A DNA stretch of 56,894 nucleotides. Source: Atractiella rhizophila (lineage: Eukaryota). Of this stretch, positions 7,144 through 50,737 are shown piece after piece. The notes under the pieces were generated by a model. It worked only from the letters and a program-made list of their open reading frames with translations, searched no databases and had not been told where the DNA came from. Position 1 is the first letter of the stretch. Each line of letters opens with the position of its first letter. The position numbers were made by a program, and so were the translations under genes. The stretch spans positions 62,001 to 118,894 of the forward strand of contig MU271256.1 in the NCBI GenBank assembly GCA_021432655.1. Reading direction: 5' to 3'.

Positions 7144-8298
7144 CTAGTAAAATAGTCTCCTACTGCAAACCGCCTTGCCGTTGTCCCTCAATTCCTGGCA
7201 GTCGAGGTAAAGATGGTGGTCTCCGTCTCCGTTTCCATACCGCGTGCCTTGCGTATGGTTTTCGATTTCTCGAGTTGGAGAAGAATAAAGACCTGTTGAA
7301 ACGGTCGAATAAGGGCAGTATCGACTCTGCGATGTCCGCCTGCCGCCATTGACGCGTCCAGCTCCAAGTCTCCGAGCAGACTCTGCTAAAGTCTTCATGC
7401 GCATTTCACCTCGTCCTGAATAGATTCCTCCCTCTCCGATGACGGTTGTTGTTACTGCTGAGGGTCCTGCCGTTTCTGGCATCTCGACAGCTCCTCGACG
7501 CTTTCGAGCTCTGGTAGGAGTAGCATATTCCCCTCCCGCTCCGTTCATGTTATTCTCCCCAAGAGGAGTGTCCGTAATTGCAACAACCGATCTGTTGGAA
7601 GTCCTGATCGCGACTCCGACGTCAGAATCCCCACCCCTATATCTCGCCTGTCCGCCAGGACCGATTTCGATATGGGGAGGGACACGAAAGTTTTGGTTTA
7701 CAAGGAGGGACGGTGAAATATCGAGAGATCGTAATTCGGGTTGGGAGGTAGGGCTGTGAAGACGACCGGTGAGAACGTCGTTCATCTTATAGTAACTGAT
7801 GAGATGCATTCCCGACATCGAAATCGTCTTCTTCACCAGTCCCTCCCTCTTGAACCGATACGGCCACGTTGGAGAGTCAACGAAGCTGCGTTTCCCCCGC
7901 CGAACGATGTTGTCCCACTTCTGGCCCCCCCTCTCTTTCTGCCCATAATCGACCTGCAGATCAGACACATAGCCTCCAAATCCCTCTTGAGCAGGTTGGC
8001 CGATGGAATGATCTATCGTGCACTTCTCAAGTTCACGGTAGACGAGAAAGTTCTCAAGGACTCTGGAAGGGCTCCAGACTAGACCGTCCCTCCACCTCCT
8101 GATCGCACTCTCTGCTTCTTCGAAGACGAAAATTGATCCAGAGGTTATAAGGCTCTTGTCCTGCTCCTGAAACCTCTGACCTTCGGTCTCAGTCCTTGAC
8201 GACAAGCCTCGAGGATCAACAGCGCGTCGAGGGTCGATTCGATGTATCCATGAAAAGTCGATTTTCCACCTGTAGCCATTAAAGAAGTTTTTTTCATG
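7144..8298 (-). pseudogene. Gti1/Pac2 (WOPR-domain) transcription factor, frameshifted near 8185
   Basis: TFHGYIESTLDALLILEACRQG, then frameshift to SLITSGSIFVFEEAESAIRRWRDGLVWSPSRVLENFLVYREL and YRFKREGLVKKTIS...HLISYY (WOPRa/WOPRb); true ends uncertain. Confidence 0.85.
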
Positions 8299-8751
8299 TT
8301 CTCGCTCTCCGGGACTAGGCTGCCAGGCAGGGATTCATCCTGGGACCGAACTTCGATTTGAGGCTCTGGCTGTCTGGAGCGTTGAACGTCGGAATCGGCC
8401 TGTTGCTCACGAAGAGGTTCGCCAGGGGTAGAAGGTGTCTGCCAATGAGGACGCGAGTCTTGATATCTGTTGGGTGTGCGGTCGAAGCTTAAAGGATCAA
8501 GGAAAGCAAAGTCAGAACTCAGAAGGCGAGTTAAGGGTTAGAGCAAAGTAGCACGCGATTGACAAAGAAAAATGAGGTCGAATGCGATAATAAAGTTCTA
8601 CTACTTTTGGAACCGCGAAGCGAAATCAAGAATTGCGCGAGATCAGCAAGGCAAGATCGAGTCCACTGTTGTAGTGACGCAAGCTTTATGCTCAGATGTC
8701 TTGCATCATGTTATAGCAAACGGAAGAACTTGAAGATAATCTCTGCTAAAT

Positions 8752-13303: not shown

Positions 13304-15162
13304 TCCTACCTATTACGCTCTTATTCGGAGCAGAATAGAGCGTTGGGTTTTTTGGCATGAGTCATAAGACACACTTTTGAGCCCTCACACCTCCCACACC
13401 ATGCACAATAGATTGAAATGAATTATACCACCATAACCCATTTGCTTGCCTCTTTCTGAACCTGCAAGGAAAGTTTATTCTGAAAAGGTTGAAAAATTAT
13501 GTTTTGTGCTGGACTCGAACCCTTGAAAGCAAGAACATGTGTCCCGCAATCCTGCTGTAGCAGATGTGCCAGTATTGCCCTGCATGCAATTTTTTAAGTG
13601 TGGTTTGATCTTTTCTCAGGTTGTGTGCCAAAAGTTGGCTTTTGCCATTCATGAAGGAATGAAAAGCACTGACATGTAAATGAAATATAGCACTCACTAT
13701 GCCCTATCCTAAGCAAATCCTCCCTGGCATTCAGAGAGGTGTGCTGGGTTACCTCAGCGCTTTCAGCTTACACAACCCACGCCCCCTCAATATTTGACAC
13801 GTGAAATTCAGCAGTAGTAGCAAGCACATGCCCTGCAGAGGCAATGTCACCAGCCAAACCCAGAACCATTAGGCAGCAATGCAAATAGAGACTCATCTGA
13901 TGAAGACATTGAAGAAAACAACCTACACAATGCAACATATGTACCACTATCGGATGAGAGGCAACCCTGTCATCCTTTCACTGCATTCAACTTTGAGATG
14001 CAAGTGATGAAGAGGAAGGCCTGTAACTTTGAGAGTATAGATACTTGACTGTAAAGCCTTGCTAAACATTCTCATTGTCATCCATCAAACAATCAGCACT
14101 GAGATAAATTCGTTTCTGTCAGGAGATAAATCTTCGGATAAGCTGATCATTTACCAGGTCGACATCAACATTTCAGGCAGCGATGGCCATGCACTCTTAG
14201 AAGTATTACCTCAGCTGCTGAAGGAGGGTTGTCATAAGCTGGCAGGACCACCTTTTCATGGAGACAGCAATAAGAAAATTCTGGTCTTTGTTTGGAGCTG
14301 ACGTCCTTTCGTCTAGCCAACGAAATGCATCACAGTGTAAGCAGAAGACAGTGTTCTGGCTGGAAAGTTTCAAAGCTTCACCAGTATGTGGAGAATCGGA
14401 GCTCCTATCATCCTTATTCAAAAGCTCAACCCTTCTTGCTGGGCTCTGTAATGGTACACGTTTGATCGTCATCCAGCTGATCTCTAATGTCATCCTGGTG
14501 ACAATTGTCACAAGTGCATTCACAGGCAACTCAGTTCTCATTCCACGCATTGCTTTGGATAGTAAAGTCTCTAATTCATTTCCCTTTGTCCTTCACCAGT
14601 TTTGGTCAGTCGGCTTCATCTGGGTAATTGAATTTCAGAAATGTGGTCTCCCTCACGCTTACAACCTCGTCATCCTCAATCCTGAAGATACCATCAGGGA
14701 TGTTGAGGCAATCGACAGCATAGTGTCTGCTGAATTGCCTGACAAGGATATGGGCCCTGAATCGTTTGAGATTGTCTGCAATCATACCGCTGCATGGACC
14801 CTGTGGAGATATCAACCCAGATGTATGATAGATGATCCTAAAAATCCTGGAAGAAAGATCTGTGGCAAAGGGTTTCCGAAGCCATTCGTAGAAGAAACAG
14901 GCATCAATGAGGATGGCTATCGCACCTACCATCGCCGTAACAATGGACGTACCTTTCAGAAATCACAGAATGGATTTATTTACAACAATCGTTGGGTCGT
15001 ACCATTTAATGCTTATGTCCTTCCGCGCTTTAGAGCTCATATCATTGTGGAACTCTGTATCTCCACCAGATCAATCAAGTACCTCTTCAAATACATCTAC
15101 AAAGGAAATGATCGGGCACAAGCTATCCTTCATAGTGTCTGAGGTGATGCGAGGGTGAGGCA
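13304..15162 (+). mobile_element. Helitron H1, left part: 5' region, Pif1 helicase C-terminal fragment fused to a Rep fragment
   Basis: 5' region matches H2; GLCNGTRLIV...VLIPRI (Pif1) followed by IEFQKCGLPHAY and KYLFKYIYKG (Rep). Confidence 0.85.
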
Positions 15163-15510
15163 TGATATGACATAAAGACTAACCTGTAGTGGAGATAAGC
15201 CTAAGAGAATACTCTAAGGTCACCTCCACTACTCTCTGATCTATGTATACAAGCAGAATAACACTACCACAGAGTGTAGAGGAGAGGAGATGAAACATGT
15301 AAGAGAACTAAAAGGGGGAAGTGACAGTGGGATTACGTGGAGTTAATAAGAGGAGAATAGACACAAATGAGCTAAGTTGTGATGCAGGTGCAAATGGGCG
15401 ACGGGTTATGCAGAGTGGCGAATGGGCGCGATTGCAGGGAACACAAATGGGCGATAGGAGATGCAATCCGGCGAACTGGCGCCGATTTGCGTAAGATTGC
15501 AAACCTGACA
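15163..15510 (-). repeat. Gypsy 3' LTR (348 bp, TG...CA)
   Basis: Minus strand TGTCAGGTTT...CATATCA; homologous to 21324-21663. Confidence 0.9.
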
Positions 15511-16646
15511 ACACCCCCCAGTTTCTGTGGTGCTTGCTGCAGGCAGAAACTTCTGCTTCGTGAGGTTTGTTAATTTTGCGAAAGTGCCTAAAGTACCAGC
15601 CGCCGCTCAGACAGAAATGAAATTGTCGGAGTAAAGAGACATTGTGTATCTCACAATTTGAGGAATTTTTTTCGAAGTTGACCAGGTGTTGTTTTGGTGT
15701 AATAAGTGTCCATCCTGCGAAAACGAGCTGGACGACTCACCAACAAACTGGTCGCCAATCTGTCCATTGAGGAACATACCGGCGCCTCGCCTAGACCATG
15801 TTCAACAATGTGACTAGGGATTCACCCAGCGAGGTGTGCAGAGGAGTAGGTCCTCTCAAAGTGAGGGGAGGGGACCTCACAATTGAGGCAATTTTTGTAA
15901 GTACGACATTGGTGATGGTGCGAGAACGCAATGAGCATTCGTCTTTGACAGGCAATGAATGGACTCACCAACGACTAAGTCGCCGACTTGCCCATTGAGG
16001 AGCAAGTTGGCGCCTTGCCTTGACCTAAGTACCAAAGACTAGGATTTCACCCGGCAAGGCATATAGGGGTGTTGGATCCCTTAAAGTAAGGAAGACCCTT
16101 CAGCGTGTTTTCGTTGAAGGTTATGAGAACGCGCATTTGGGTGATTTTTGGCTGAGTTTGGTATGGAATCAGGACGAACTGCAAGAGGTGTGCAGTGTGA
16201 TAGTCTTTTATAGCATCCTACGAATTTTCTAGATCTGTAATGCTGATCCACTCGTCCTCAGATGGTGAATACCCTTTGTATTGAACACGCTATTTGACAA
16301 CTCTATTTAGGGTACCGAACCATTTTCCATCAACAATTTTTCCACTTACCATTCTTCAATTCCATTCACCAATTCCGGAGGTGGTTTAGGCAACTAGACT
16401 CTGCCAGGGATGTCGTCTTGGTTGCCTTTTCGTATTAGGCCCACATGGAACACTGGATGTATCTTCCATGAGGATGGCAACTCAAGTTTAAGGTTGAGGG
16501 GACCCAAAACTTGCAAAAAGCAAAAGGGGCCATGCCATTTGTCATCCAACTTTTTGACAGGTCTCATTGATTTGATGTTTTTCGCGCTCAACCAGACGAA
16601 ATCGCCCGAAATGATATTCAGGCGTCGGTGTGCGTTTTCTGTCATA

Positions 16647-16979
16647 ATACGAATACTCTTCTATAATATAGTTTTTAGGAAGAATGCGATCTAGAACATC
16701 GTTTAACAGAATTTGATTTTTGTCCACTATTTTTTTTCATATGTTCTATATAATTTTCGTAAATTCTACAAATTTATGAGATAAATCTAAAATAATATTA
16801 TCGTATATACTTTGTATAATAATAATAAATGCACTTATTAAATATACAGCTGCAGAATATATCTGAATTATAAGCTATTAATTCTTTATGCTAATAATTC
16901 TTTTATGTTTGTAGGTGTAATATTATTTATATTGGCATAATTTATTGTTATAATAGATATAGTATAAACTAAAAAAATT
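16647..16979 (-). pseudogene. nad4: AT-rich mitochondrial-derived insert (nad4 fragment at about 16767-16979) within the Gypsy integrase
   Basis: Translates, with two frameshifts, to VYTISIITINYAN...TNIKELIAYNS.IYSAAVYLISAFIIIIQSIYDNIILDLSHKFV, collinear with the ND4 motif IKELIAYSSVSHAAVYLIGVFSNTIQGIEGGILLGLAHGFV (recalled). Confidence 0.75.
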
Positions 16980-19900
16980 GAAATGCTTTGCCAAGAGATC
17001 AGCTGCTGCTTGTACTTCCCGGTCAGCAATTTGCATCTTTTCGACAAATTGCGCTACTGCAGAACGTCCTTGTCAGAGAGGGGTTCAAAAACCATGCGGG
17101 GATGTTGACCGCAATCGAGCGAAAATGGAGTTATGCCCGTCGCTGAGCTGACACGATTGTTGAGCGTAAATTCTGCATTGGGAAGTCCTTCCATCCAATT
17201 ATCCTGAAGGTGGTTGCAGAAAATGCGCAAATATTGTTCAACCTCTTGGTTCATACGTTCAGTCTAACCATCACTTTGTGGATGATCGGCTGTCAATGGT
17301 GAACCTTTGATACCTTTGATACCTAATAGGCGAAAAAGCGCGGATATGAATTTGGACACAAACTCTTTGCCTCGATCGAAAATTGTGACATAGAAAAGTC
17401 CATGTAACTTTCATACCTGATCGCGAAAAAGCCTTTCAAGGCCTTCTGCATCCATCGTCAAATGGGTGGGGATAAGATGGATGCGTTTTGAGAGTCTGTC
17501 AACTATGACGAAAATTGTGTCGAACCCCGTAGATTCTGGGAGTGGTCCAACCAAGTCCATGCTGACAATTTGTCATCGACGTGTGGGAATGTCATTTGGT
17601 TGCAAAAACCCGACAGGCGGGGAACGAAATTTTTCGTTCTGTGGCAAGTGTGATAGGCGCGGACATAGCCGCGTACATAATGCACCAAACCTGGCCACCA
17701 GTAGTACCTTTTTACGAGAGCTGTCGTCAATTTTACACCTGGATGACCTGCGATTTGCGAATCGTGCAGGTCTTGCAAAATCGAGCCGCGAATTTCGTCA
17801 TCGCGGGAGTTTTCCGCGAAAATAGACAGCGCCATCGAGTCCTTGCAACTCTCGTCGGCAAATTGTGTCGACTGGTTCATCTAGGATCTCTCTCAAGGCC
17901 TTGACTACTTGTTCTTCCCGTTCAGGCACCTTTTTCACACGTTCCAGTATACTCAACTTCGACATGTGTCTTGTGAGCGCAATGGCGCTCCCAGTCGCGT
18001 TAATGGTGATACGATCCGTGTTGAAAAAACGTTCTGGGAGTAATACTACGTCGAAGTTGTCGTAAGTCACCGGTTAGTGATCCGGTCGCCGACTGAGTGC
18101 ATCTGGTTTTGCTGAGTTTCGTCCAGGACAGTGTAAAAGACTGAAGTTGAAAGATGCAAGTTTGGTGATCCAGCATGCTTGTCGCCGATTCAACTTTTGT
18201 GGCATTCTGAAATACTCAAGATTTTTGTGATCGGTCAAGATCAGAAACGGCTCATCAGTACCTTGAAGAAGGTCTCCATTCTTGCAGTCCACGCATTATC
18301 GAGAGCATTTCTTAGTCGTAGGTGTCATAGTTCCTCTGGGCAGCGTCAGGCGATTTTGACACGAAACCGAGAGGATGAAACTTCCCATCTGACTTCATTT
18401 GCGACAAAATGGCGCCTGTCACGAAATTTGACGCATCGACTTCAAGCAAAAATCGTCCTATTTGTTCAGGATGTGCCAAAATGGGTGCCAAAGTCATGAC
18501 CTGTTTCAAAGCGGTGAGCGAACGTTGCTGTTCTACCCCAAGACCCAGGAAACCTCCATTTTCGTCAGTTCATATAAAGGTTGTACGATGTGACTGCATC
18601 TATCGCAAAAGCGGCGATAGAAATTAGTGAAACCGAGGAACATTTGGACTTCCTTCATGTTTTTCGGTTCTGGCCAATCCATCACTCCCGCAACTTTACT
18701 GGATCTGGTTCGATCCCTCTGCTAGAAATGATCAAACCTAGATACTCCACCTCTTCTTGACACCAAACAAATTTTTGAAAATTTATATAAAGCCCATTTT
18801 GACGCAAAATTTGACAAACTTGTGGAACGCGTTCCCGGTGTTCTTCTTCAGTCTCTGTTGCAATCTGGATATTGTCGATGTATATGAAGATGAACGCAGC
18901 GGCGATCATCGCACGAAAAATAGAGTTCAGGAAAAACTGAAAAGTCGCCGGTGAGTTGCAGAGACCGAAATACATCACCAATGGTTCGAAAAGCCCGCAA
19001 TCTGTGCGAAATGCCGCTTTGTGCTCGTCTCCTTCTTTGATGCGAACGTTGTTGAAACCCTTTCTCAGGTTAATCTTGCTAAAAAATTTCTTACCAGAGA
19101 CCATGGAGAAAAGTTCAGCTTGGATAGGGAGTGGAGTTTTGTCCTTGATTGGGGCTTCATTCAACTTGCGATAGTCGAAAAGGGGACGAAGTTCAGGTGA
19201 GTCCTTTTTGTGTGTATAAAGACGGAAGCACCATGTTCACCTGTGCTGGGACATATACGACCGGCGCTCAGGTCAGCGTCAATGAATTGGTCGAGCGCCG
19301 CTTGTTCGTCTCTTTTCAAGGGGTAGATGGGACCAGCATATGGTTGAGCTTCTGGTTTGAGGTTGATAGCATGGTCCCAAGGTCATCGAGGAGGAGGAGA
19401 TGTTTTGAATTTTTCGTCATCGAAAATGTCTGCAAAGCGGTATTTCGACAACCTTCTTTGGTCTCATCACCGCTGCATCTTTCGCCAGTTTCTGCGATTT
19501 TATCATGGCGGCGTGTATTGAGGCAGAGGACGATAGAAGTTGGTCTCGTGTGGGAAACACATCAACCACATTGCAACCGGTGGGGCAACGAGAGAACTCA
19601 ACTTTCCCTGATGCCCAGTTAATCTCTGGGTTGTGGTGTCTTAGTCAGTCATGAAATAGAATCATGTTGACAGTCTGCAACTCCGCCACAGCGAATTGTC
19701 AAACTTCGTGATGGGCGGCCATTGAAATAGGTAAATAAGCGACAGAATGGATGGAACCCCCTGATTGAGATATCCGTTGATATTGTAAACGGGCACTGGG
19801 GAAGGGAGTTGAGTGATGGGTAGGTTGTATGCAGAAACGAGTTTTGGAGAATACAGGAAGTGGTTGCGCCGCTGTTGATGAGCGCCGATGTGGCGTGTTG

Positions 19901-21323
19901 CCGATGGGAATGTGGGTGATGAAAGGTGGTTCTGAGTTTCGTTTTCGAACTGACTAGGGATGCAGTTGTCGAACATAAGTGGAGTTTGTCGTACAATTTT
20001 GCGAAATCTGGGCATCTTTGTCTCCAAGATGGAAAACACAATTTTGGAAATGGGGAGTCATGTTCAGGAGAAGGGAAAGCTGCACAAAGCGGCGCTTTGT
20101 TGGAAGTGATTTTAGGTGACAAAAATGAATTGCAAGTCGGCGATGGGTGCACTCCTTTCACCCATCGCCGTCTCAAAAATCCTCATCCAGATCCGATGAT
20201 TGAGCGACGCTCGTTTTTGGCAACTGGTCAGTGATTGCGCAGATTGTCGCTCTTGTTCTACGAGATGAGTGAAAAATATTCTCCTTGTGCATGAAGGTAT
20301 TGCTCTTTGCTCATGGACATCTTGCATTCCTTCTCTCTGTGTCCGATTTTTTGGCATCTTCGACAACGAGGCAGTCTGAACTTCGTTGCGTCTACCTCCA
20401 TATCGTCGGGGTCTCAAGCTTCATGAGGTTGCGAAGCGGCGATTGGCGACAAAGCCGGGCTCGGTCGGTACAGAGAGGGTCCGCTGTTGTCCTTCTGTTT
20501 CATCGATTTTGAGCGGTCTTTCTTTGCTGAATATGTATTTTGGGTTCCACTCGTCGCCGATGAGATGCCCCGAAAGAAGCTGGAATGCACGAATTCGTCA
20601 GCGTTGATTCTCTGCATTTTTTCCTTCCACTCTTCAAGGGACTTGGAGAAATCACCTTGTGTCAAGGTGTAGGGCAGGATTGAGCCCTTGTTTGAAGAAT
20701 AATGTGAGCACCTCATCATCAAAGTCTGCACCTTTCAGAAGGGAACTGTCCTGGGATCGCAGACATGTAGAAGTAAATTTCGCGAAGAAAGGTCGGCGCC
20801 AAGCTAGGCACTCCTTTGAAGATAGAGGGTGGGGCGAGTCTAATTCCTGCATAAGGCGAACTTGTGCAGTTTGAGGTATAGAGAGAGGAGAGTAAGTTTG
20901 GGGTATTGGGTCTGTTCATGATAAAAAGGGGGAGGTGGTTCTCCTGTCTCCAGGAGGAGGCAGCCTGGAGTCCAGCAATGGTAAAATTCGGTCGTTTGTG
21001 TTTTGGATGTCGGACCTCAGTTGCGCAATTTCGTGCGCATTTTGGGAGGTTTGCGCATTTTGTTGGTTGAAACTTGATATGGGGTCTTATTCGCGTTTTT
21101 TGAACTGCTTTTTGGTTGTGAGGTGTAGAGTTTGGAACATCCTTTCTAAGTGATGGATGTGTTCTTCGCTCGTCGGCGATTCGCACGGTTCCATATCTCC
21201 CCAATCCTCGAACATTTTCTAAGTTTGGTTTTGAAAGGAAAGAGAGTATTCTTCTGTTAGGGCTGACACTATGTGCGGTCACCAACAGGCGATGTGTCTG
21301 TAGTAGAGATAAACCTAAGGGCA

Positions 21324-21663
21324 TGATATGACATGAAGACTAACCTGTAGTGGAGATAAACCTAAGAGAATACTCTAAGGTCACCTCCACTACTCTCTGA
21401 TCTATATATACAAGCGGAATAACACTGCCACAGAGTGTAGAGGAGAGGAGATGAAACATGTAAGAGAACTAAAAGGAGAAGTGACAGTGGGATTACGCGG
21501 AGTTAATAAGTGGAGAATAGACACAAATGAGCTAAGTGGTGATGCAGGTGCAAATGGGCGAACAGGCGACCGGGCGCCAATTTGCACTGCGTGCAAATAG
21601 ATAGGCGACGGGAGACGCAGAGTGGCAAACGGGGGCCGATTTGCGTAAGATGCAAACCTGATA
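21324..21663 (-). repeat. Gypsy 5' LTR (340 bp)
   Basis: Homologous to 15163-15510; terminal TG mutated to TA; TATATATA at about 21403-21410. Confidence 0.9.
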
Positions 21664-37934: not shown

Positions 37935-40900
37935 TCCTATCCTATACTCTAAGATTCATCAGTTCTTGGCATGAGTCATAAGGCGCACTTTTGAGCCCTT
38001 ACACCTCCCTCACCATACACAATAGAATGAAGTGTATTATACCATCATATCCCATATGCTTGCCCCTTTCTGAACCTGCAAGGAAATTTTACTCTGAAAA
38101 GGTTGAAAAATGTGTTTTGTACTGGACTCGAACCCTTGAAAGCAAGAAAATAGCCAACTCTGTCCCCGATTCCGCCGCAGCAGCCCCGCAATGAACCAAA
38201 TTCCGCCGTAACAGGCTTACCCAGAGTTGCCCTGCATTTGCAGCCTTGCCCAGAATTGCCCTGCATACATGTGATTTGTTTATATAGCGTGGTTTAGACT
38301 ACGATAAAGTCTTTGCACCAACAGCACGATTGGCAGCCATCCGTGCCATTTTGTCCCTGGTAGCCATTGAAGATCTCGAGTGTGAGACAATGGATACAGT
38401 CACTGCTTTCCTAAACAGTGATCTAGAAGAAGAAGTCTTTATGGAACCTCCTCCTGGTCTAGATGTTCCAGAAGGCATGGTGTTGAAATTGAAGAAGTCA
38501 CTTTATGGCCTTCATCAATCAGCACGTTGCTGGAACAGAGACCTCGATAAAACACTTGTTGAGGATGGTTTCAAGAGGTGTAAAAGTGATCATTCAATCT
38601 ATGTCTGGGAAAAGAACAGAAAATTCGTTATACACCAGTACATATTGATGATCATTTCTCAGTTGTGTGCCAAAAGTTGGCTTTTGCCATTCATGAGGGA
38701 AGGAAAGGACTAACATGCAAGTGAAATATAGCCTCTTACATGCTTCTGATGGCCAAGTAGACTTATTATGCCCCGTCCCAAGCAAAAAAAAGGTGCTGAG
38801 ACATGAATTCGGGCCCAACAGCAGAGGCGAGAAGATAGCCCTGTTGATCTCCCCCGCCGTTCAGAGAGACGTGCTGCAGGATTGCCTCAGCGCTTTCAGC
38901 TTACACAACCCACACCTCCTCAAATTTGACCCATCAAATTCGTATGCAGCAGCAGGAGTGTGAACCTCCTAGAGGACGCCGACGTCAGCCAGACCTCCAC
39001 CTTTACGTGAAGAAATCGATGACAGTCTCTCAGATGGACAGCTGGAGGGTGGATTTGAGATTCCCAAACTTCCTAACCAAACGATGATAGCTTCTCGGGG
39101 ATACAAGACAAGATCAGCATCCTTTTTCCGCATTCAACTACTTACCACAAAGTGGAGGCCATCCGACTTTCGGGATGGAATGAAGCCTTTTGCTCAGAAT
39201 GTGGTGCTTTTCATTGGCTCGAGGAACGGATAGCAAGGAGCTCTAAGCGGAATCCAAAGTTTTCTAACTGTTGTTTTCTGGGAAAGATTATTCTTCCTGC
39301 TTATGAAGGACCACCAGCAGAATTACATCAGCTATTAATCAACCCAGATACCCAAGAATCAAAGCAGTTTCAAGAAAATATCCGCTCCTACAATAACGCT
39401 CTTTCCTTTACTTCTCTTGGAGTCAAGCGGCCTCCTATTCCTGGGCAAGGAATTTATTCTTTTCGGATTCAAGGGGAGCTGTGCCATTGTATTGGAGCTT
39501 TGCTACCTGATTCTGGCGGAGATGAACGGTTTGCACAAATCTATATGCTGGATTCTGAAGAGCAGATTCGACACAGAGTAGAGACCGTTGGACAGCACAA
39601 ACTCGGGGGAGGGGCTTTGAGGAAGTTGCAAGGAATGATGTGGCGGGTCAATCCCTGGCCGGAAATTTATAAAACAGCAAGAGAGCGCATGGAAGATAAT
39701 CCGACTTTGAACATCCATCTCTGAAGCATCAATCCTACTGATCAGGACCCTCGACGATACAATAGGCCAACAGGTCATGGCATAGGAGAAATTGCAGTAC
39801 TTCTCATAGGTGAACAGTCAGGAGCTACAGCAGGTATCACAAGGGATATTGTGGTTAAACTTCGATGTCCTGATGGTCAGAATGTCTTTGAAAGAGTTAG
39901 TGATCAGAATGCCAACTACCTTCCTCTACGCTTCCCACTTTTGTTTCCCTATGGCGAGCAAGGTTGGCACGCATATATCCCCCTCAGTCACGGAGGCTTG
40001 CTTCAACGTGGTCCACGAGAGGAATATCGAAATGATGAAGGACAAATAGTTGGTAATATGGGGGAACAGAAACACGTTACTCAGATGAACTACTACTCTT
40101 ACCTGCTTCACCTAAAGAAGGACACATTCTCTCTAATTCACCATGGTGGCCGCCTGTTCCAAGAATTGGTTTGTGATGCTTATGCTCAGATAGAAAGTGG
40201 AAGATTGAGGTTCCTGAGGTACAATCAAGAACTTCTCCGAACTGAGTCTTATGCTGGACTTGGCGATGCATTAGATGATGGTCTCGATGCTGCAGATGTT
40301 GGGAAGCGGACCATTCTACATCGTCACACACTGGAAGTCCCCGCCAAATGAACCAGCAATTCCAAGATGCTATGGCGATTGTTGGGAACTGAGGTTCACC
40401 TGCTATCTTCACAACTTTCACTTGCAATCCAAGGTGGCCAGAAATCATAGAAGCTCTACTTCCTGGGCAAACAAGCTGCCGATCGACCAGACTTGGTCTC
40501 TAGAGTTTTCAACGCAAAGGTGTAGGCTTAAATGCAGGACATCAAGGATAACTCAATCTTCGGACGGTCAGTCGGCTTCATCTGGGTCATTGAATTTCAG
40601 AAACGTGGTCTTCCTCATGCTCACATCCTTATCATCCTCAATCCTGAAGATACATCAGGGATGTCGAGGCAATTGACTGCATAATGTCTGTCGAATTGCA
40701 TGACAAGGATACCGACCCTGAATTGTTTGAGATTGTCTGCAATCATATGCTTCATGGACCATGTGGAGATATCAACCCAGATGCTACATGCATGATAGAT
40801 GATCCAAAAATCCTGGAAGAAAGATCTGTGGCAAAGGGTTTCCGAAGCTATTCGTGGAAGAGACAGACATTAACGAGGATGGCTATCCCACCTACCATCG

Positions 40901-42569
40901 CCGTAACAATGGACGTACCTTTCAGAAATCACGGAATGGATTTATTTACGACAATCGTTGGGTCGTACCGTTTAATGCTTATGTCCTTCGGCGCTTTATA
41001 GCTCATATCAATGTGGAACTTTGCATCTCCATCAAATCAATCAAGTACCTCTTCAAATACATCTACAAAGGAAATGATCGGGCGCAAGCTGTCCTTCAGG
41101 GCGCCCGAGCTGATGTTAGGGTAGTGGATGAGATTCAAGAGTATTTGGATGCTAGATTCATCACATCTTCTGAAGGTAAGTGTTAACAACTACTCCTGAG
41201 ATGACGCTAGGGCTTATTTGATACAATTTACAGCCTGTTATAGGATTTTCCATTTTACTTTACACCAGCATTTTCCTGTGGTTATTCGATTGGCAGTACA
41301 CCTCCCTGATCAGCATTCTGTGACCTTTAATCCTCAGGATGAGTCCCTGGGTGACATTCTTGGCCGGAACAACATTGCTAAAACAATGTTGACAGAGTTC
41401 TTCACTTACTGTCGGGAAAACCCCAACATTACTGAAGACCTTACCTATCCTAAGGATCCTCAATTCCTTACCTGGAAGTCAGGGTCACGCTCTTGGAAAA
41501 TCTGGGAGAGACAAGAAGCCATCGGCGGTATCTACTATGTTGCGCCATCACAAGGGGAGTTATTCTATCTCCGAATGCTTCTGCATCAGGTTGCCAGCCC
41601 AAAATCTTTTGAGGATATCCGAACAGTCGAGGGAACTGTCTATGAGACTTTCAAGGCTACATTGTGGCTCTTGGGCTCTTAGAAAGTGACGAAGAATGGA
41701 ATTATTGTCTCAATGAAGCCAGCACAGTCAAGAATGGCGTTGCCATGTGATCTCTATTTGTCTACATCCTGCTATTCGGAGTCGCCAGCAAACCCAGAAG
41801 ATTATGGCACAGCCATCATGAGCAACTCAGTGACGATTGTAAACACCTTCTACGGACAAAATATGGTGTAGACAATCCAACGAATGAGCAAATTATCAGC
41901 CTCTGTCTCCTCGAAATTGAAGATCTCCTCCAAGCTCATGGTAAATCCCTAAGTAACTTTGGACTACCACAACCCGCAGAGCGACTAGAAAGATGGGGAG
42001 GTGAGACAAGAATCATTGGAGAAGAACTTGATTATGATTGACCGCTACTTCATGCATGTATTCAGACAGAGTTACCGTTATTAAATCTGGACCAACGCCA
42101 TGATTATGATACGGTTGTAGAAGCATGGCAAAATGGAAATGATGGATTATTTTTTATTGATGGGCCAGGAGGGACCGGAAAGAAGTTTGTTGAAAACCTA
42201 TTACTTGCCAGGGTGCGTTCAGCGGGGAAAATTGCGCTGGTAGTGGCCTCTTCCAGTATTGCTGCTATTCTGCTGGACGGTGGACGAACAGCCCATACTC
42301 GCTTCCGGATCCCATTAGACATTGAAGCTGATTCCGTCTACCGTGTTACGGCTCAAAGTGATTACAGTTGACTTTGCCAAGAGGCAGAATTGATAATTTG
42401 GGACGAAGTGGGAATGAGTCATCAATGGTGCTTTGAAGCAGTTGACCGGATGCTGAGAGATATACGTAAGGTGGATGTGCCTTTCGGTGGAGTTATTTTG
42501 GTTCTTGGTGGTAAGGGCATCAAGTCAAAGAGTTCATGTCTGATAAATAATTAGGTGACATGTGACAAT
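37935..42569 (+). mobile_element. Helitron H2, most complete copy, 3'-truncated and pseudogenised
   Basis: A|TC start; Zn finger CSECGAFHW...CCFLGK; HUH EFQKRGLPHAH at about 40593; KYLFKYIYKG; Walker A GPGGTGK at about 42163; IIWDE; introns 41177-41233 and 42511-42554; ends at LTR-B. Confidence 0.95.
38296..38649 (+). mobile_element. Isolated Copia RT fragment inserted in the Helitron 5' region
   Basis: LDYDKVFAPTARLAAIR...MDTVTAFLNSDLEEEVFMEPPPG...LKKSLYGLHQSAR; absent from H1, which reads GTGGTTT|GATC at about 13600. Confidence 0.9.
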
Positions 42570-42736: not shown

Positions 42737-45700
42737 CCTTATCGGGTTTCTTCTGCCATTGATGGCCTCCTTGCCTTGTACGATAGATGGCCTTGATTAA
42801 CTTGAGAACATACTCTGGAGGACCCTGTGGATGACCTTCTGGTTGTTATGCATAGACTTCTGATCCATATCGCTGTTAAGGAATGCCGTAGAGATATCCA
42901 CTGACTCCAACTCCATGTCCAGGACATAAGCGAGCGAAAGAATCGTCCTAAGTGTCGCCCATTTGACCGTAGATGCAAAAGTATCAAAGTAGTTGAATCC
43001 AGGGCGTTGAGAGAACCCCTTGATGACAAATCTGGCCTTGAAGCGCTCAATAGAACCATCTGACTTCTTCTTAACCGCAAACACCCATCGAGAACCAACA
43101 ATTTTTGCTCCTTTAGGCGGTTTGACCAGAATCCAACTCTTGTTGTCCAAGTGAGATTGAATCTCCTTCACTGTCGCTTCATGCCATTCCTTTGCATTAG
43201 GGCTTGCCATCGCTCTTGAATATGACTGAGGAACCTCTACTCCTGTTGCTGCACTCATGGCATGCTCTGTGACAAGCATATAGCCTCTGGCTCAGTGAGG
43301 ATGTCACATTCCCTTACCAACATCCCAAGCTCATCTGCTGATCCCTCTTCGTTGCTTTGAGGTGCTTCTGGGGTCCTAATTCAGTCTACAGTTCGTCCTC
43401 TACTCATAGAATAAATTCTTGAAGACCTGGTGGCAGGAGGAGGTGTCAAAGCTGCTGGAGGAGGTTGATCTGGTGTTGTTGGACGGATCTGGAGGGGATC
43501 TGGAGACTCTGAGAATCTAGGCATGTGAACTCCTGTCCAAGGATCTCTCTCTGCATGGTGTACTGACGAGGTGGTGTCCTAGGGCGTTCAGGCACAAGCT
43601 GTAGCGGGGTCTGGAGACGCCTCTCTTTCTTCTTCTTCTTCTTCTTCAACCTGCAGGGGCTGAAATCGATCTGGAGACTGTATTCCAAGTGGTCTGGGTT
43701 GTTCCTGAGGTGTAGGAGGTGCTCCTGGCTGTCAAATCCATCCTTCTTCTTCATCGTCGTCTAGCGAAATCGGAGGAGCGGCTGGAGCATTATTCTGTCC
43801 ATCTCCCACCTGATCCTGACGCTCCTTCCACTCATCAAGTGGTTCCTGTGGCTCTTCCAACATAATCTTCTCCTTCCTCACCTTGCAAAGCATCTCTCTC
43901 TCATCAAATCTGGCAACATCTCGAACGTAGACCTTCTTTCCAACAGGATCCCAGAACTCCCACCCTTTCGCTGCAAGGGAATAGCCTATAAATGCACATT
44001 TTCGAGTATGAGATCCTAAGCTGTGTGGCCTTTCATCCTTCTGAACTTGAACGTAGGCAGTGCATCCAATGATTCTGAATCTTGAGATGGTTGGAGTAAG
44101 TCCAGTGAGTTTCGTGTGGGGAATAGCATGGTCGATCGAAGCTGAGGGAGATCTGTTGCGAATGTGGACGACCACTGAAGCGATAGATGGCCAGAGAAAG
44201 AGAGGAAGCCCAGATTCTTCAAACATGGCGACCATAGTCTCCTGAATCGTCCTATTAGCTCGTTCTGCCCTGCCATTCTGGTGAGGAGAGTTCCTGATCG
44301 TCTCTTCACGCTGAATACCACAGGCCTTGAGGTATTGATCGAATTCCTTAGAGGAATAAGCGCCTTCCTTGTCCTCTCTAAACTTCTTGATCTTCTTCCC
44401 AGTAGCATTCTCTACCCAATTCTTGAAGGTCTTGAAGAGTTCTGGGGCCTCTGATTTCTTCTTGAGGAAGGCAATTGTGCAATGATTTGTTGCTTCATCG
44501 ATGAAGGTGACCCAATATCGATATCCTTCTCTGGAAGTGACTGGAAGAGGTCCATGCAGGTCCGAGCTGATCCTACCCAGTACTTCCTTCTCCCTGGTCT
44601 CTGCTGACTTGTTGAAGACCCTATGCTGCTTCCCAGCTAGGCATGGCTCGCAAAAAGGGTCTGGATCATCCTCCAGGTCCAAAATCATCCCATTCACAAG
44701 TTCCTTCCTCTTCAGACGCTTGATGTCCTCATAATTCAGGTGTCCAAGTCTCCTATGCCATAGAGAAGCATCCATGGGCAGTGTAGAAGCATTCCCAGCG
44801 AATTCTGGAGCAGGAAGGGTGTTCCCATCAAGTATCCCAGCCATGCTTCCATTCTTGTAGTCCACAGTGGCACTAAGGCAGAGTTTTTGATGCTGGAAGA
44901 AGAGAACCTTGTTGTGCTTGATGGAGACCCTCATTCCTTTGTAGATGGTGAGCCTGAAGACTGACAGGAGTGACAGGAGGTTGTTCCAGAGCTCGAGGAC
45001 ATGTAGGACATCTGAAATGGTAATGGTGGTGGTCTTCTTCTTCCCCAACTTGGCTTCAAAGATCAAGCTCCCAATTCCAGCACTCCAAATCACTTCTCCA
45101 CTTGCTACCCTGAGAGGAATGACCTTCTTCTGATACGTTCTGAACCAATGACGATGGGGAGACATGTGGGAAGTTGCACCAGTGTCTGCTATCCACTCAA
45201 GGCTTGCTTGAGGCATAGTGACATCATTTGCTGCAGCAAGACTGTTCTGTCCAGCAAATTCCAACCCATTAAGAGCCATTTCCATCCCTAACATCTTCCC
45301 AGAGTCTGTGGCTGAGTCCTAAGATCCACTGATGTGATGGAGGAGGTGGGGGCTGACGTGATGTGATGTGATGGTGGCAAATTTCGAAATTTTGACTCTT
45401 CTGATCAAGGTGATCTGTTGTAGGATAGTAGAATAGCCTCTTGTGAATCCAATGGCGATAAAATCGTCCAGATCAGACCAGATCTGACTTCACAAAGTCG
45501 AAAAATATGTTTTAGGGGTATGAAGGAGGTGATAGAGTAGCTATCTCGAAATTTTCGTTTATTGTGACCAAGATGGTTCCTAGTAAAGTTGTACCGCAGT
45601 GTTTCGCGATCAAAATAAGCCCTATAACGTCCAAATTTGTCAAAGTTTGAGTCCAGGGTGGCAAATTGCGTTTTAAGGCAGGTGATAGATTTCGATTTTT

Positions 45701-46070
45701 CTTGATTCCTGAGTAGGCAGAAACCTTCTAAGGTGGTAAAGGAACGTTTGAGGATCACAAATCTGTTCTGATCATCGAAATTGAGTGAAATTTGAGTGTG
45801 GGAGGGTCAAAATTGTCTGGAGGAGGAGGAAGGTGATAGGTGTGACCAAATGTAATCCTAGCCACCAGCTCTCACTACCATGTAAGGATCTAAGGCTAGG
45901 AGTAGTTGGTGGTCAATAATGAGGCATTGATGAAGTATAGAGAGACATACCTAGGAGTAGTTGGTGGTCAATAATGAGCACCAACACTCCTAGGCAGAAC
46001 TAAACTACATAGTTATGACTCATATGAGTCATAAGAGGCAGATGACCAAAACAACACACTACAACTAACA
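42737..46070 (-). mobile_element. Copia element A-1: 5' LTR-A 45881-46070, PBS, protease-integrase ORF 43732-45294, partial RT; no recognisable gag
   Basis: PBS TGGTAGTGAGAGC; WIADTGATSHM, LWHRRLGH...CEPC, SDLHGP, QNGRAERANRTI; RT KARFVIKGFSQ, DISTAFLN. Confidence 0.92.
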
Positions 46071-46109
46071 GTTGTGGCGGTAAGTAGTAACCTGCACAAA
46101 TATCGTCAA

Positions 46110-46840
46110 CACTTTCATTCAGAGAAATTAATGGCATTACAGCCTGACTTGAAATCTCAGAACCCTGAGGTGGCTGAGGTTGTTGAAGCAGCAGGACGCC
46201 TTGCCATCTTCATGCCCAAGTCTCATTCTGAACTTTCCTTTGTCGAGTTTTTCTGGGGTACAGCTAAAACAATATGTTCAAGGTGAGTTTTAAAGCTTTC
46301 TTCTGTGTCGCAAGTGGTGAAGGAAAGATGGCACAGAAGACTGTCATATACTTTTGAGGGATTACCATAAACCATTCCACATGGTTTGAAATCAGTTTCT
46401 GTCCTCACATTTTCTAGATTTGAGCACAGAATGCATCATTAGGTGAAAGCTTATAAGGAAGGGAAAAATGTTATGGACCCTGGGTACCAGGTGCAACATT
46501 GTGCTTCTTATTGGCGAGTTCTTGATGTTAGTTGTAGTGTGTTGTTTTGGTCATCTGCCTCTTATGGCTCATATGAGTCATCACTATGTAGTTTAGTTTT
46601 GCCTAGGAGTGTTATTATTGACCATCAACTACTCCTAGGTATGTCTCTCTATACTTTTCTAATGTCTCATTATTGACCACCAACTACTCCTAGCCTTAGA
46701 TCCTTACACTTGAGGTTAGAGCAACTTGTGATGATTTCCTATCAATCTGGATATTCCACCAATTTACAGTAATTTAATGATGATTTTATGTAGAAAAAAA
46801 AACCTTTCAAAAGTGGATAGTGACTTAGGTGACCTATACT
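46110..46840 (+). mobile_element. Tc1/IS630-like (DDE_3) transposase C-terminal relic
   Basis: QPDLKSQ...EVVEAAGRLAIFMPKSHSELSFVEFFWGTAK matches the fungal PKFHCELNFIEFFWG motif; later RFEHRMH...AYKEG. Confidence 0.7.
46526..46708 (+). repeat. Solo LTR-A with TSD CTTGA
   Basis: TGTTAG...CTTACA flanked by CTTGA on both sides. Confidence 0.95.
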
Positions 46841-46956
46841 ATAGCCTCATCTATTCTCAGATCTCTTCCTGAGTGAGAGTTTGGCTTTAGAGTGACAGGT
46901 ATGTCATGTGGGATGAACGATGACTAACGTTCTACGCAGTTTCAAACGATCAGTTT

Positions 46957-47603
46957 TCTATCCTCTAAGCTTCATCATTTGTTGGCATGAGTCATAAAAT
47001 GCACTTTTGAGCCTTCATACCCTCCTCACCAGGCACATTGAAACAAAATGAATTACATCATTTTACTGCATATGCTTACACCTTTCTGAAGCTACAAGAA
47101 AATTTTAGTGAGAAAATGCGTTTTGTATAAGACTCAAACCCTTGAAAGCAAGAACTTAGGCAACTCTGTCCCTGCATCTTGGCCATAGCAGCCTCACAAT
47201 GAACCAGATTCCGCCGCAGCATCGGTGCACCATGCATGTGATTTCTTCAATGCTGTTTGATCATTGCTCACATCACACACCAGAACTTGGCTTTTGCCCT
47301 TCATGAGGGAAGGAAAGCACTGACATGTAAGTGAAATATATCCTCTTACATGCTTCTAACCGCCGATTAGACTCACTATGCCCCCGTACCCAGCAAAAAA
47401 AGGTGCTGAGAGACGAATTCACCAGCCCGAAATATTTTGAGGATATCTTAACAGTAGAGGGAACTGTCTATGAGACTTTCCACACAACATGTGTGGCTCT
47501 TGGGCTATTAGAAAGTGATGAAGAATGGGATTATTGTCTTAATGAAGCCAACTCAGTCAAGAATGGCTTTGCAGTGCGATTTCTGTTTGTCTACATCCAG
47601 CTA
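46957..47603 (+). mobile_element. Helitron H3, internally deleted derivative
   Basis: 5' region joined at about 47420 directly to SPKYFEDILTVEGTVYETF (about 2.8 kb of H2 missing). Confidence 0.85.
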
Positions 47604-47604
47604 G

Positions 47605-49921
47605 TAGGGGGCAGTTTAGGCGGTCATCATCTTTGACCACCAATCTCTGTCCCCTAGCTCCGTCCAGCATCAGATTCTCTCATGGTAGCGAGAGCGGTGG
47701 CTAGGATTGACAGATCAGTTTTGCCACCCACTTGGCTGAAAATTTTGATCACTCAGCCATCCGTTGTCCAATCGGTTTGAAACTTTGGGATCACAAACGA
47801 GACCCCCTTGCGCCTATATCCACCCATTTCTACGAAGATCGGACGATCCAAATTCGAATTTTATCACCATGGCCGAAGAAAGGAAAATTTTGATTACCCC
47901 CCTTGGAGAGAAGAACTATGGCACCTGGTGCATTGATATGCAGGTGGAATTGATGCGAAAAGGATTATGGGAGATAGTCTCTAGAGTGGAGACAAAACCA
48001 GAAGATTTGAAGGAGCAAAAACAGTGGCAAAAGGACAGCTCCAAAGCGGCTGGGATCCTGTTCCTTAGCCTAGAAGCGACCTAGAAAGCCCATGTGGTCT
48101 CTGTCCTTCAAGATCCAGTCAAGATCTGGTCTACCCTTCAAGAAATCCACCAACAGAAGCGCTCCTCAACTCGTTTCACTGCCCTCAACACCCTCCTTGC
48201 CCTCCAGAAGAAGGAAAGCGAATCTCTGATCACCCTGTGTGCCAGAAGCGACCAGCTGCTTCTAGACTTCACCAACACGCTTTCCAAGGACTATTCCCTT
48301 GATGATTTGAAGGAAGATCTCCAATCCTTCGCTCTCATCCGCTCCTTAGGCCCAGAATATGCTAGTTTCGTCCAAAACATCACCCTCATGACCTCTACTG
48401 ACCTCCAATCGATCAAACAAGTGTTCTACTCGATCCAAGCCACCAAGAACTCAGAGGAAGCCATCTCCAACACTCAAATGGCAAATCAGGCATCCAGCAG
48501 CAACAAAGGACGAGGAGGATGGCGTCCCAGAGGTGGTAGTGGTGGAGGAAGAGGTGGAACTCGCATTTTTTCGCAACCTGAGTGCAACTACTGCCGCAGG
48601 AAGGGCCACTATGTCTCCCATTGTCCAGAAACCCCCACTGGACGCAATAGGATCGAACTAGACAAGTACAGGACAAAGTATAGGAAGCTGGAAGAGGCAA
48701 AGGAAGCTCAAGTGGATGGGGAAGGGTCAGAATTCGCTGGGGAGACCAGCTATGCAGCGGTAGATGATGCCATTAGTCGCCAGAAAGCTGGGACTGACTG
48801 GCTAATCGATACAGGGGCAACTTCATCAATGACCCCACACCACCAATTCTTCAAATCCTATCGAAAACACGTTGTACCCATCAGAGTTGCTAATGGAGAA
48901 GTGATCTGGTCAACTGGGATTGGAGAGGTGGTGATTGAGGCGAAATTGGAGGATAAAAAGTCGAAGAAGGTCACCATTCACATGTCTTCGTGTCCCCAAA
49001 TTGTGTAGCAATCTGCTATCAGTTTTCAAGCTTACAATCTTTGAAGGTGTAACTGTAACCTGTTAGTTGTAGTGTGTTATTTTGGTCATCTCCCTCTTAT
49101 GACTCATATGAGTCATCACTATGTAGTTTAGTTTTGCCTAGGAGTGTTGGTGCTCATTATTGACCACCAACTACTCCTAGGTATGTCTCTCTATACTTCA
49201 TCAATGTCTTATTATTGACCACCAACTACTCCTAGCCTCAGATCCTTCCATAACCATCATTGGGAGCAGAGTACGCTTCGTCAAGGCCAGAAATCCCTGT
49301 TCCACAGCTACAGTTGACCACAGGAGAGGAAGCATGAGTGCCATCATCGATGGAAGAACACTCATGGCCTCAGAATTCGTTGCACATGCCTCCACTACCC
49401 ATTTAAATGCTTCCCTGTGGCATTGAAGACTTGCCCACTTGAATCATGAAGATATAAAGCGAATGCTGAAGAAAAAACTTGTGAAAGGAATGATTCTGGA
49501 CTCAGATGACGCTCCTAACCCCATCTGCGAGCCCTGCATCGCTGGGAAGCAGCATAGGATCTACAACAAGGCTGCAGAGAATAGGGAGACGGAAATTTTA
49601 GGAAGGATCAGCTCAGATCTTCATGGACCACTCCCAGTTGCTTCAAGAGAAGGATTTCGCTATTGGGTGACGTTTATAGACGAGGCAACAAGTCACTGGA
49701 CGATCGCTTTCCTCAGGAAGAAGTCAGAGGCGCCTCAACGCTTTAAGGAATACAAGGAAATGATGCAGAACCTAACTAGACAAAGAAGGAGCCTATTCCC
49801 CAAAGGAGTTTGATGAATATCTGCGAAACTGTGGCATCCAGCGCGAGCAAACGATTAGGAACTCTCCCCATCAAAATGGGAGAGCAGAGAGAGCAAATAG
49901 GACAATTCAGGAGGGTATGGT
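47605..49921 (+). mobile_element. Copia element B-1: partial 5' LTR-B, PBS, gag-protease-integrase, truncated
   Basis: LTR end 47682, PBS TGGTAGCGAGAGC; gag ATG 47869 with stop at 48082; zinc knuckle CNYCRRKGHYVSHC; WLIDTGATSSM; SDLHGP. Confidence 0.92.
49061..49250 (+). repeat. Solo LTR-A with TSD TAACC
   Basis: TAACC at 49056-49060 and 49251-49255. Confidence 0.95.
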
Positions 49922-50737
49922 TGTAAGGATCTAAGGCTAGGAGTAGTTGGTGGTCAATAATGAGACATTAGAGAAGTATAGAGAGACATACCTAGGAGTA
50001 GTTGGTGGTCAATAATGAGCACCAACACTCCTAGGCAGAACTAAACTACATAGTGATGACTCATATGAGTCATACGAGGCAGATGACCAAAACAACACAC
50101 TACAACTAACACTCCCACCTGGGTAGCTGTCTCTTGACACTCCCACCACATCCAGAGAATCTCCCACCAAATTCGTACAATGTATACTCGATATAAAGCA
50201 GAAAGCATATTAGTTTTTCAGTGAAAAGAAGAGGGAAAGTCCTCGCACCGCTTAAAGCGGTGTCTTATAACCCACAGAGGAGGAAAGGAATTTTTTATTG
50301 CACCCCATAACTGCCTCAGACACTTGGGTAGGGGCGCAAACCCATCATAACTCGAAACTTGTCCACACTGACGACTGGAAGTGCCTTGGTAAGGAGGTCC
50401 GCTGGCATATTGACCCCTGGACAGAAGACTGGACTGATCTTGCCCATCTCAACAACATCCCTGAGCCAATAAAAGTGAAGGTCCAGGTGTTTCATTCGAC
50501 CATGGTGCTCAGGGTTCTTGGATACCTGTAGAGCGCTGCTGCTATCTGTGAAGCTTGAGGAGCGAAGCCAATTTCTTCTAAAAGATTCCTTAGCCAGACG
50601 ACTTCTTGGCCAGCTGAGACTCCTGAGACATATTCCGCTTCCGTGGTAGAAAGAGCAACGAGGGATTGTAGTTTGCTGCTCCAACTGACTGCTCCGTTGC
50701 CTATCTTGAGGAGATAGCCTCCTGTAGAACGTCCAGT
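49922..50737 (-). mobile_element. Copia element A-2, 3' end: RNase H, PPT, 3' LTR-A 49922-50111
   Basis: SWSSKLQSLVALSTTEAEY, RMKHLDLHFYWLRD, ADLLTKAL; PPT AGGTGGGAG abuts the LTR. Confidence 0.9.

Follow-up and report, generated by a model that had tools for sequence, protein, structure and literature searches.

Two tandem structured RNA modules in the 3' region of a fungal chromovirus family

How the intact, unspliced RNA of fungal LTR retrotransposons leaves the nucleus and enters the particle is poorly documented. Here we report on a chromovirus of Atractiella rhizophila that carries two diverged copies of a sequence of ~130 nt in its 3' region, and ask what these copies are and what the element might use them for. 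Both lie in a stretch of 56,894 nt of contig MU271256.1 (the window), to which all coordinates refer unless another locus is named. The copies had been noticed in an original prediction made from the window, and their positions (15734-15866 and 15962-16091, minus strand) were verified.

The host element and the fold of its modules

The source assembly comprises 51 Mb and is rich in repeats. The family belongs to the Ty3/Gypsy chromoviruses, as judged from gag, the order PR-RT-RH-IN, an SH3 domain and a C-terminal chromodomain (Pfam, one family copy), a polypurine tract (PPT) and LTRs. The window copy consists of the following parts:

15159..15508, minus strand: 3' LTR, 86% identical to the 5' LTR over 356 columns
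15514..15551, minus strand: pre-PPT hairpin at 15520-15551 and, at 15514-15519, the G-run polypurine tract
16081..16083, minus strand: pol stop codon TAA, inside the 5' end of module A
16084..21319, minus strand: decayed gag-pol (RT, integrase, chromodomain), broken by stops, frameshifts and an AT-rich insert
21320-21661, minus strand: 5' LTR, partner of the LTR at 15159-15508

The AT-rich insert interrupts the integrase (16640-16990). As predicted, both modules sit between the chromodomain and the G-run PPT of this minus-strand element; the overlap of module A with the pol stop had been missed. In many family copies the pol frame ends with EGSSSL at this very stop.

One common fold, a five-way junction, was obtained for 12 A and 12 B modules with RNAalifold. 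Its parts and the flanking hairpins are located as follows:

16103..16134, minus strand: hairpin in the last pol codons just 5' of module A, as folded in a family copy; in the window copy it is decayed
15962..16091, minus strand: module A, five-way junction, 143.5 bits with covariance model R1
16085-16090 with 15964-15969, minus strand: P1 of module A
16066-16080, minus strand: P2 of module A
16053-16060 with 16012-16019, minus strand: P3 of module A
16044-16052, minus strand: internal loop of module A; P3b starts at 16043
16000-16011 with 15982-15993, minus strand: P4 of module A, loop 15994-15999
15970-15981, minus strand: P5 of module A
15867..15961, minus strand: spacer between A and B, containing a hairpin at 15936-15961 and, at 15875-15888, a unit-end CCTC/GAGG hairpin
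15734..15866, minus strand: module B, same five-way junction as A, 131.1 bits with model R1
15840-15856, minus strand: P2 of module B
15828-15835 with 15784-15791, minus strand: P3 of module B, internal loop 15819-15827
15772-15783 with 15754-15765, minus strand: P4 of module B, loop 15766-15771
15649..15663, minus strand: unit-end CCTC/GAG(G) hairpin 3' of module B

P1 is the closing stem CUCACU/GGUGAG and P2 a short hairpin. P3 forms a long arm with a GGGUGAA internal loop and a distal stem CCUA-GU/AC-N-UAGG, P4 is a 12-bp hairpin with a CUCAAC loop, and P5 has 3 bp; there are no linkers between P3, P4, P5 and P1. The copies are ~75% alike and differ by a 4-nt insert. The predicted period of 228 bp applies to their 3' ends, that of the 5' ends is 225 bp, and a typical family copy has 227/231. 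The shared junction had been recognized without its closing stem P1, and a GGG-TGAA(T/A)-YCC hairpin proposed within it is probably not the true fold: its ensemble probability was 0-0.27 across the 24 modules, against 0.47-0.98 in 21 of the 24 for CCUA/UAGG. The thermodynamic model thus suggests that the longer CCUA/UAGG stem is probably favoured and the GGG/YCC hairpin a minor alternative.

The folding z-scores of the window modules were -2.6 and -2.7, and those of less decayed copies were -6.0/-6.8 (A) and -4.2/-2.6 (B). A rough scan gave -4.1, -3.7, -1.7 and -5.7 for windows covering the modules, and a z of -4 was reached by 1 of 42 upstream and 0 of 21 downstream windows. On the antisense strand module B folded poorly, and module A folded as well as on the sense strand.

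Selection on the fold

Modules A and B differ by 13 letters in 37 homologous pairs, of which none is broken and five are changed on both sides. This outcome was not matched by any of 200,000 random placements, a test that is optimistic in that the structure had been chosen on the same sequences. Since the structure was drawn from the sequences compared, single copies were folded separately. One A copy alone gave 45 confident pairs, of which 41 are kept in B; the remaining four are at helix ends or belong to an alternative P5 register. In the alignment of 12 A and 12 B modules, 98.2% of the cells pair, compared with 30-44% once the partners are shifted against each other. Double-sided changes affect six pairs, a count that by itself was matched by 81 of 500 shuffles.

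Two stems named in the original prediction, CCTTGC/GCAAGG versus CCTCGC/GCGAGG and TGCTC/GGGCA versus TGTTC/GGACA, do covary, and so does the upstream hairpin, in the form GGGG/CCCC versus GAGG/CCTC. The supposedly invariant CTCAAT loop is indeed conserved, but as CTCAAC in most copies, CTCAAT being a product of CpG decay. The double changes are located in three separate helices, and the unpaired words GGGUGAA, CUCAAC and UUGA are retained, in contrast to the diverging spacer behind B. On the sense strand, G-U pairs are conserved and alternate with G-C or A-U.

Substitutions were counted in 52 aligned copies, after removal of L205 (no match at 80%) and L204 (a duplicate of L066). Private substitutions amount to 0.8-1.2% per site in stems, loops and spacer alike, as expected of decay after insertion. 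Non-CpG stem changes common to at least three copies preserve pairing in 9 of 10 cases, compared with 23 of 71 private ones (Fisher p 0.0008). Within the family, one pair of P4 changed from C-G to U-A (14 U-A, 24 C-G, 3 C-A, 1 other), and the U-A state is grouped in a poorly resolved tree of the pol tail (400 nt, 41 copies, those with too little upstream sequence left out). The covariation thus amounts to one A/B split and one event within the family, which is two lineages' worth and not a deep alignment.

An old duplication of palindrome-rich sequence, with stems matched by template switching and no function, would account for a pair of this kind, and template slippage has been frequent in the family (losses of P4, loss of a whole unit, a micro-inversion). 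Template switching yields perfect Watson-Crick stems, however, and here G-U pairs persist, double changes occur in three helices and unpaired words are kept; we regard an origin without function as improbable.

A conserved coding frame (LTLRxPTPL...PQW), named in the original prediction as the competing explanation, was rejected since the peptide does not form one frame in the family copies. That the region is coding in some other way, or serves as an IRES or reinitiation element for a downstream ORF, appears very improbable. In several copies, one sense frame has no stop over ~205 codons from module A onward (4-17 of 1000 shuffles), and an AUG lies 3' of module A. The differences between A and B, however, fall 6/6/6 over the codon positions and comprise 2 synonymous and 10 replacement codons, the two modules differ by the 4-nt insert, and the downstream stops switch frames among copies. 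Stop-codon readthrough was ruled out, as the pol frame meets a TAG 14 codons past its stop.

We are highly confident that the modules are a selected, non-coding, sense-strand RNA fold present in two copies. They go back to an old duplication, in tandem, of a structure that acts in cis on the full-length sense (genomic) RNA.

Family copies and searches for relatives

A DNA search gave a family size of at least 40 genomic copies (41 matches; 40 of 55 candidates scored), and one motif had 85 matches, compared with 4 for its reversed control. Thirty loci were assigned to a short form (15) and a long form (15), both of which contain A and B and include copies with intact pol frames. The short form, to which the window copy belongs, runs from pol through A and B to the PPT and has no antisense ORF. 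The long form has in addition a spacer of 700 nt, a third element that folds weakly and an antisense ORF of ~500 codons, and it ends in a different LTR. Because A and B are kept in both forms, the modules are independent of the antisense gene; it is the genomic RNA that needs them.

The third element is GC-rich and conserved (825-905 in L170; 34 genome matches); it contains a GTGAGT word and its folding z-score is not significant. The antisense ORF (1228-2710 in L170, protein P0079) carries a likely GTGAGT..AAG intron and encodes a CxxC..C..CxxC..C cluster and a basic patch. The protein matched no Pfam family above the cut-off and had Atlas scores below 0.9; its only relatives are four proteins assigned to Atractiella rhizophila (Pucciniomycotina).

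The same 35-nt excision of P4 between short direct repeats was found in five B modules and one A module, in both forms (L017, L028, L062, L192, L199, L202), and this recurrence indicates that the hairpin forms on a single-stranded template. The 3' end of module A carries a micro-inversion in L014, and one whole unit is lost in L201. Three decayed loci that lack both modules retain gag and the third element; the loci without modules (L186-L189) carry little weight as evidence because they are chimeric or nested.

As the original prediction had proposed, the modules were compared with Rfam and a covariance model was used to look for homologues. The best scores against Rfam 15 were 21 bits for the window region (threshold 59) and 18 bits for a less decayed copy (threshold 84). 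Family members score 57-162 bits with model R1, which comprises 0.95 effective sequences and is so narrow that distant homologues could be missed. R1 found no match in 17 viral pattern loci or in 11 other chromodomain loci of the same genome, where a match of 27.6 bits was a truncated family member. Its best scores were 14.4 bits on 19 chromovirus loci from IMG/VR, 12.8 bits on the best 80 of 470 metagenome relatives (36-46% identical) together with two prokaryote pattern matches, and 18.7 bits on 90 loci, 89 of them picked by the pattern itself (80 of the 87 matches listed). A de novo search for tandem copies, which detected its positive control, was negative for all 82 related chromovirus loci with at least 400 nt past the stop. 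Other chromodomain families of the same genome run from pol to the PPT without modules, and many of the nearest elements reached (36-46% identical) go from pol directly to the PPT or into a further sense ORF; since other chromovirus families do without such a tandem, the modules are not generally required.

In several metagenome loci (L089-L132) the further sense ORF begins within ~100 nt of the pol stop. Related fungal chromoviruses (L068, L070, L072, L075, L147, L165) have in common a small hairpin just 5' of the PPT, the loop of which is of the AGGAC type; the unit-end hairpin of the present family resembles this hairpin only superficially. The sequencing runs listed included none with RNA, and three environmental runs contained no more than short pieces that are nearly identical.

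No account of a comparable element in fungal LTR retrotransposons was found in the literature searched on this region, mostly the part available without subscription. A collection of 15 fungal motifs does not contain the terms 'transpos' and 'LTR' in its main text (PMC5640933). The modules represent a structured RNA that is not catalogued and belongs to a single family of fungal chromoviruses; no homologue outside the family was found in the loci searched. The selected, undescribed cis-acting RNA of the original prediction is supported by the pair-keeping changes between A and B, the pairing of shared changes and the lack of an Rfam match.

The tRNA-like and catalytic functions that had been suggested did not fare as well. 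The compact multi-helix fold and the conserved unpaired purines would suit a self-cleaving ribozyme or a tRNA mimic, but ARAGORN reported no tRNA gene in any of four loci. CUGANGA, the hairpin loop B and the HDV J4/2 word, which are core words of the hammerhead, hairpin and HDV ribozymes, were absent from both strands of the modules in two copies. Moreover, a self-inflicted break between pol and the PPT would sever the genomic RNA, which must stay whole as the template for reverse transcription, and we consider both functions extremely improbable. Likenesses to the K-turn, group I and II introns, VS and twister were dropped, as none fitted when judged by eye against its consensus.

Buried splice donors and possible functions

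Each module contains a splice donor consensus, G/GTGAGT (the slash marks the splice position), in its closing stem:

15963..15969, minus strand: G/GTGAGT in P1 of module A
15735..15741, minus strand: G/GTGAGT in P1 of module B

The word is invariant in both modules, and positions -1 to +4 are predicted to be paired (probability >0.9). In a long copy, sense GTGAGT words are confined to modules A and B and a third predicted stem. GTRNG donor words are depleted by about half in pol (6-7 versus 13-16 expected, three related copies), whereas a broader donor word, GT..GT, shows no depletion. The introns of the host beta-tubulin have loose signals (seven introns of one gene, read by eye), with donors GTCTGC, GTTTGT and GTGCGG; AAG is the likely acceptor of at least one of them (L206). 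Some copies carry in the LTR an optional intron-like insert of ~30 nt (GTTAGT..TAG) with a duplicated flank, located at 21320-21400 (minus strand) in the window and at 1740-1800 in L189. The loose host introns, the LTR insert and the shortage of donors in pol suggest that splicing is a live problem for the element. None of 18 deletions of at least 6 nt in the 52 aligned copies matches splicing from the module donors, and the resemblance to a donor may simply follow from the invariance of the stem. An exon-cassette or circular-RNA function was discarded, as no copy has a spliced form and the branch-point look of the P1 partner strand is forced by its complementarity to the donor.

The loops of the two long arms contain complementary words:

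16032..16035, minus strand: P3b loop word of module A, UUGG in the window; candidate partner UCAA in the P4 loop (15994-15999)
15802..15806, minus strand: P3b loop word of module B, GUUGA; complementarity to the P4 loop extends over 5 nt

The word of module A is UUGA in 38 of 46 copies. UUGA is present in the P3b loops of both modules despite loop lengths of 7 versus 11 nt, and UCAA is retained in the P4 loop. Among the copies parsed, UUGA/UCAA is the sole all-Watson-Crick loop-loop match of at least 4 nt that is common to both modules. The only shared variant (8 of 46 A copies) yields a G-U pair, and no double-sided change was seen at UUGA/UCAA. Judged from this complementarity, the chance that the P3b and P4 loops kiss is about even.

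We tentatively favour an element that protects the full-length RNA from splicing and keeps it competent for export, a reading by analogy that we put somewhat short of an even chance, because of the position, duplication and size of the modules, the candidate kiss and the masked donor. The closing stem of each five-way junction would hide a strong splice donor, and the two long arms may kiss loop to loop. Host factors that hold back splicing of the full-length RNA and could carry it out of the nucleus might then dock on the fold. The modules have the position of an export element, between the last gene and the 3' LTR on the sense RNA.

The closest parallels are found in animal retroelements. 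The MTE of the mouse LTR retrotransposon MusD comprises a kissing loop as well as a pseudoknot (PMC5767303, PMC3362945). Like the modules, it is a structured multi-helix cis-element on the sense RNA of an LTR retrotransposon, and its kissing interaction has a candidate counterpart in them; unlike it, the modules measure ~130 nt, are duplicated, reside in a fungal member of the Metaviridae, have no sequence or model match to it and would act in export by analogy only. The candidate kiss of the modules is between hairpins, whereas that of the MTE is between a loop and an internal loop, and a second pseudoknot was not found in the modules. Two copies of ~115-135 nt near the 3' LTR are described for the direct repeat (DR) of Rous sarcoma and avian leukosis viruses and the CTE of MPMV, and unspliced RNA requires the DR in order to be exported and packaged (PMC9143442); a new CTE is presented in PMC11379458. 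The DR and the CTE are long hairpins with internal loops that bind NXF1, whereas the modules are five-way junctions, adjacent and ~75% alike with compensatory changes. No match to CTE, DR or MTE was found in sequence or Rfam. AAGACA is the CTE word; it is missing from both modules in each of two copies, with one chance match in the spacer of one. By analogy, the modules may work like export elements, but they belong to none of the named families tested.

A packaging or dimerization signal bound by Gag and placed at the 3' end is rather unlikely, although the same evidence for selection and the retention of the modules in both subfamilies would fit, and the DR of Rous sarcoma virus serves packaging too (PMC9143442). 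The loop-loop complementarity could act between two RNAs, but no self-complementary loop was present among the loops compared. The packaging signals of retroelements are mostly 5'. A position at the 3' end would be understandable because the element appears to be self-priming, so that no 5' tRNA platform is needed. The three decayed loci that retain gag without the modules argue against packaging, though they were perhaps not moved by retrotransposition.

Protection from RNA decay is unlikely, be it an exonuclease block of the xrRNA type, a shield against NMD of the RSE type or a poly(A) clamp of the ENE type. The structure begins at the stop codon of an RNA with a tail of 0.6-2.8 kb, and its tandem layout and compact knot recall the xrRNAs of flaviviruses, which occur as pairs. 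An xrRNA is a three-way junction with a ring-forming pseudoknot at its 5' end and resists Xrn1; the present fold is five-way, and the Rfam scans returned no xrRNA family. The RSE of Rous sarcoma virus likewise follows a stop codon, but that of gag, the main stop, whereas the modules lie behind a pol stop that is rarely reached. As gag and pol overlap in different frames, most ribosomes would terminate 4 kb upstream, at the end of gag, so that a shield at the seldom-read pol stop would be misplaced. ENEs are structured, are found in Evade and other retrotransposons of plants and fungi, in the 3' untranslated part (PMC12501189), and share with the modules the location 3' of the genes; the modules are multi-branched, without a U5 run or a U-rich internal loop, their internal loop being GGGUGAA.. 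/ UC.A.

A functional P1 donor, gated as a U1 decoy or by release through a ligand or protein, could set the ratio of full-length to shortened RNA. The invariant G/GTGAGT, predicted to be paired in both modules, would suit such a gate, a downstream ACTCACC in some long-form copies could compete for pairing, and stems ending in GAG/GTGAGT occur in other LTR families of the same genome. The NRS of Rous sarcoma virus, which contains a decoy 5' splice site (PMC9143442), offers a precedent; it also holds a donor sequence but lies in gag near the 5' end, unlike the modules. Against this, none of the 18 deletions fits splicing and a 6-mer in a conserved stem can arise by chance, so that a gated donor is improbable. 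A further version, in which the five-way junction with its kissing loops acts like a riboswitch and uncovers or covers the donor in answer to a ligand or protein, for example the antisense-encoded cysteine-cluster protein, and so toggles between full-length and shortened RNA, is quite improbable. If true, it would be a new class of eukaryotic RNA switch.

The modules are so far known from one family in one genome. The module is small, self-contained and naturally duplicated, with ready-made compensatory variants, which renders the question directly testable and the module a good target for RNA structure determination.

Several further observations concern other elements and genes. In another chromovirus family (L049, L050), an LTR stem ends exactly at GAG/GTGAGT and is followed by an intron-like stretch. 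The layout of the long subfamily resembles that of plant Retand elements, in which a long region from pol to the 3' LTR contains an antisense ORF and repeats of unknown function (PMC11963269). The Retand repeats are short tandem arrays, and the main text of that article does not contain the term 'secondary structure' (PMC11963269). Elsewhere in the window, Helitron-like and Ty1/Copia remnants with nested LTRs occupy 39077-41682 and 42797-52447, and a gene for a Gti1/Pac2 (WOPR) transcription factor (7147-8334, minus strand) is surrounded by repeats.
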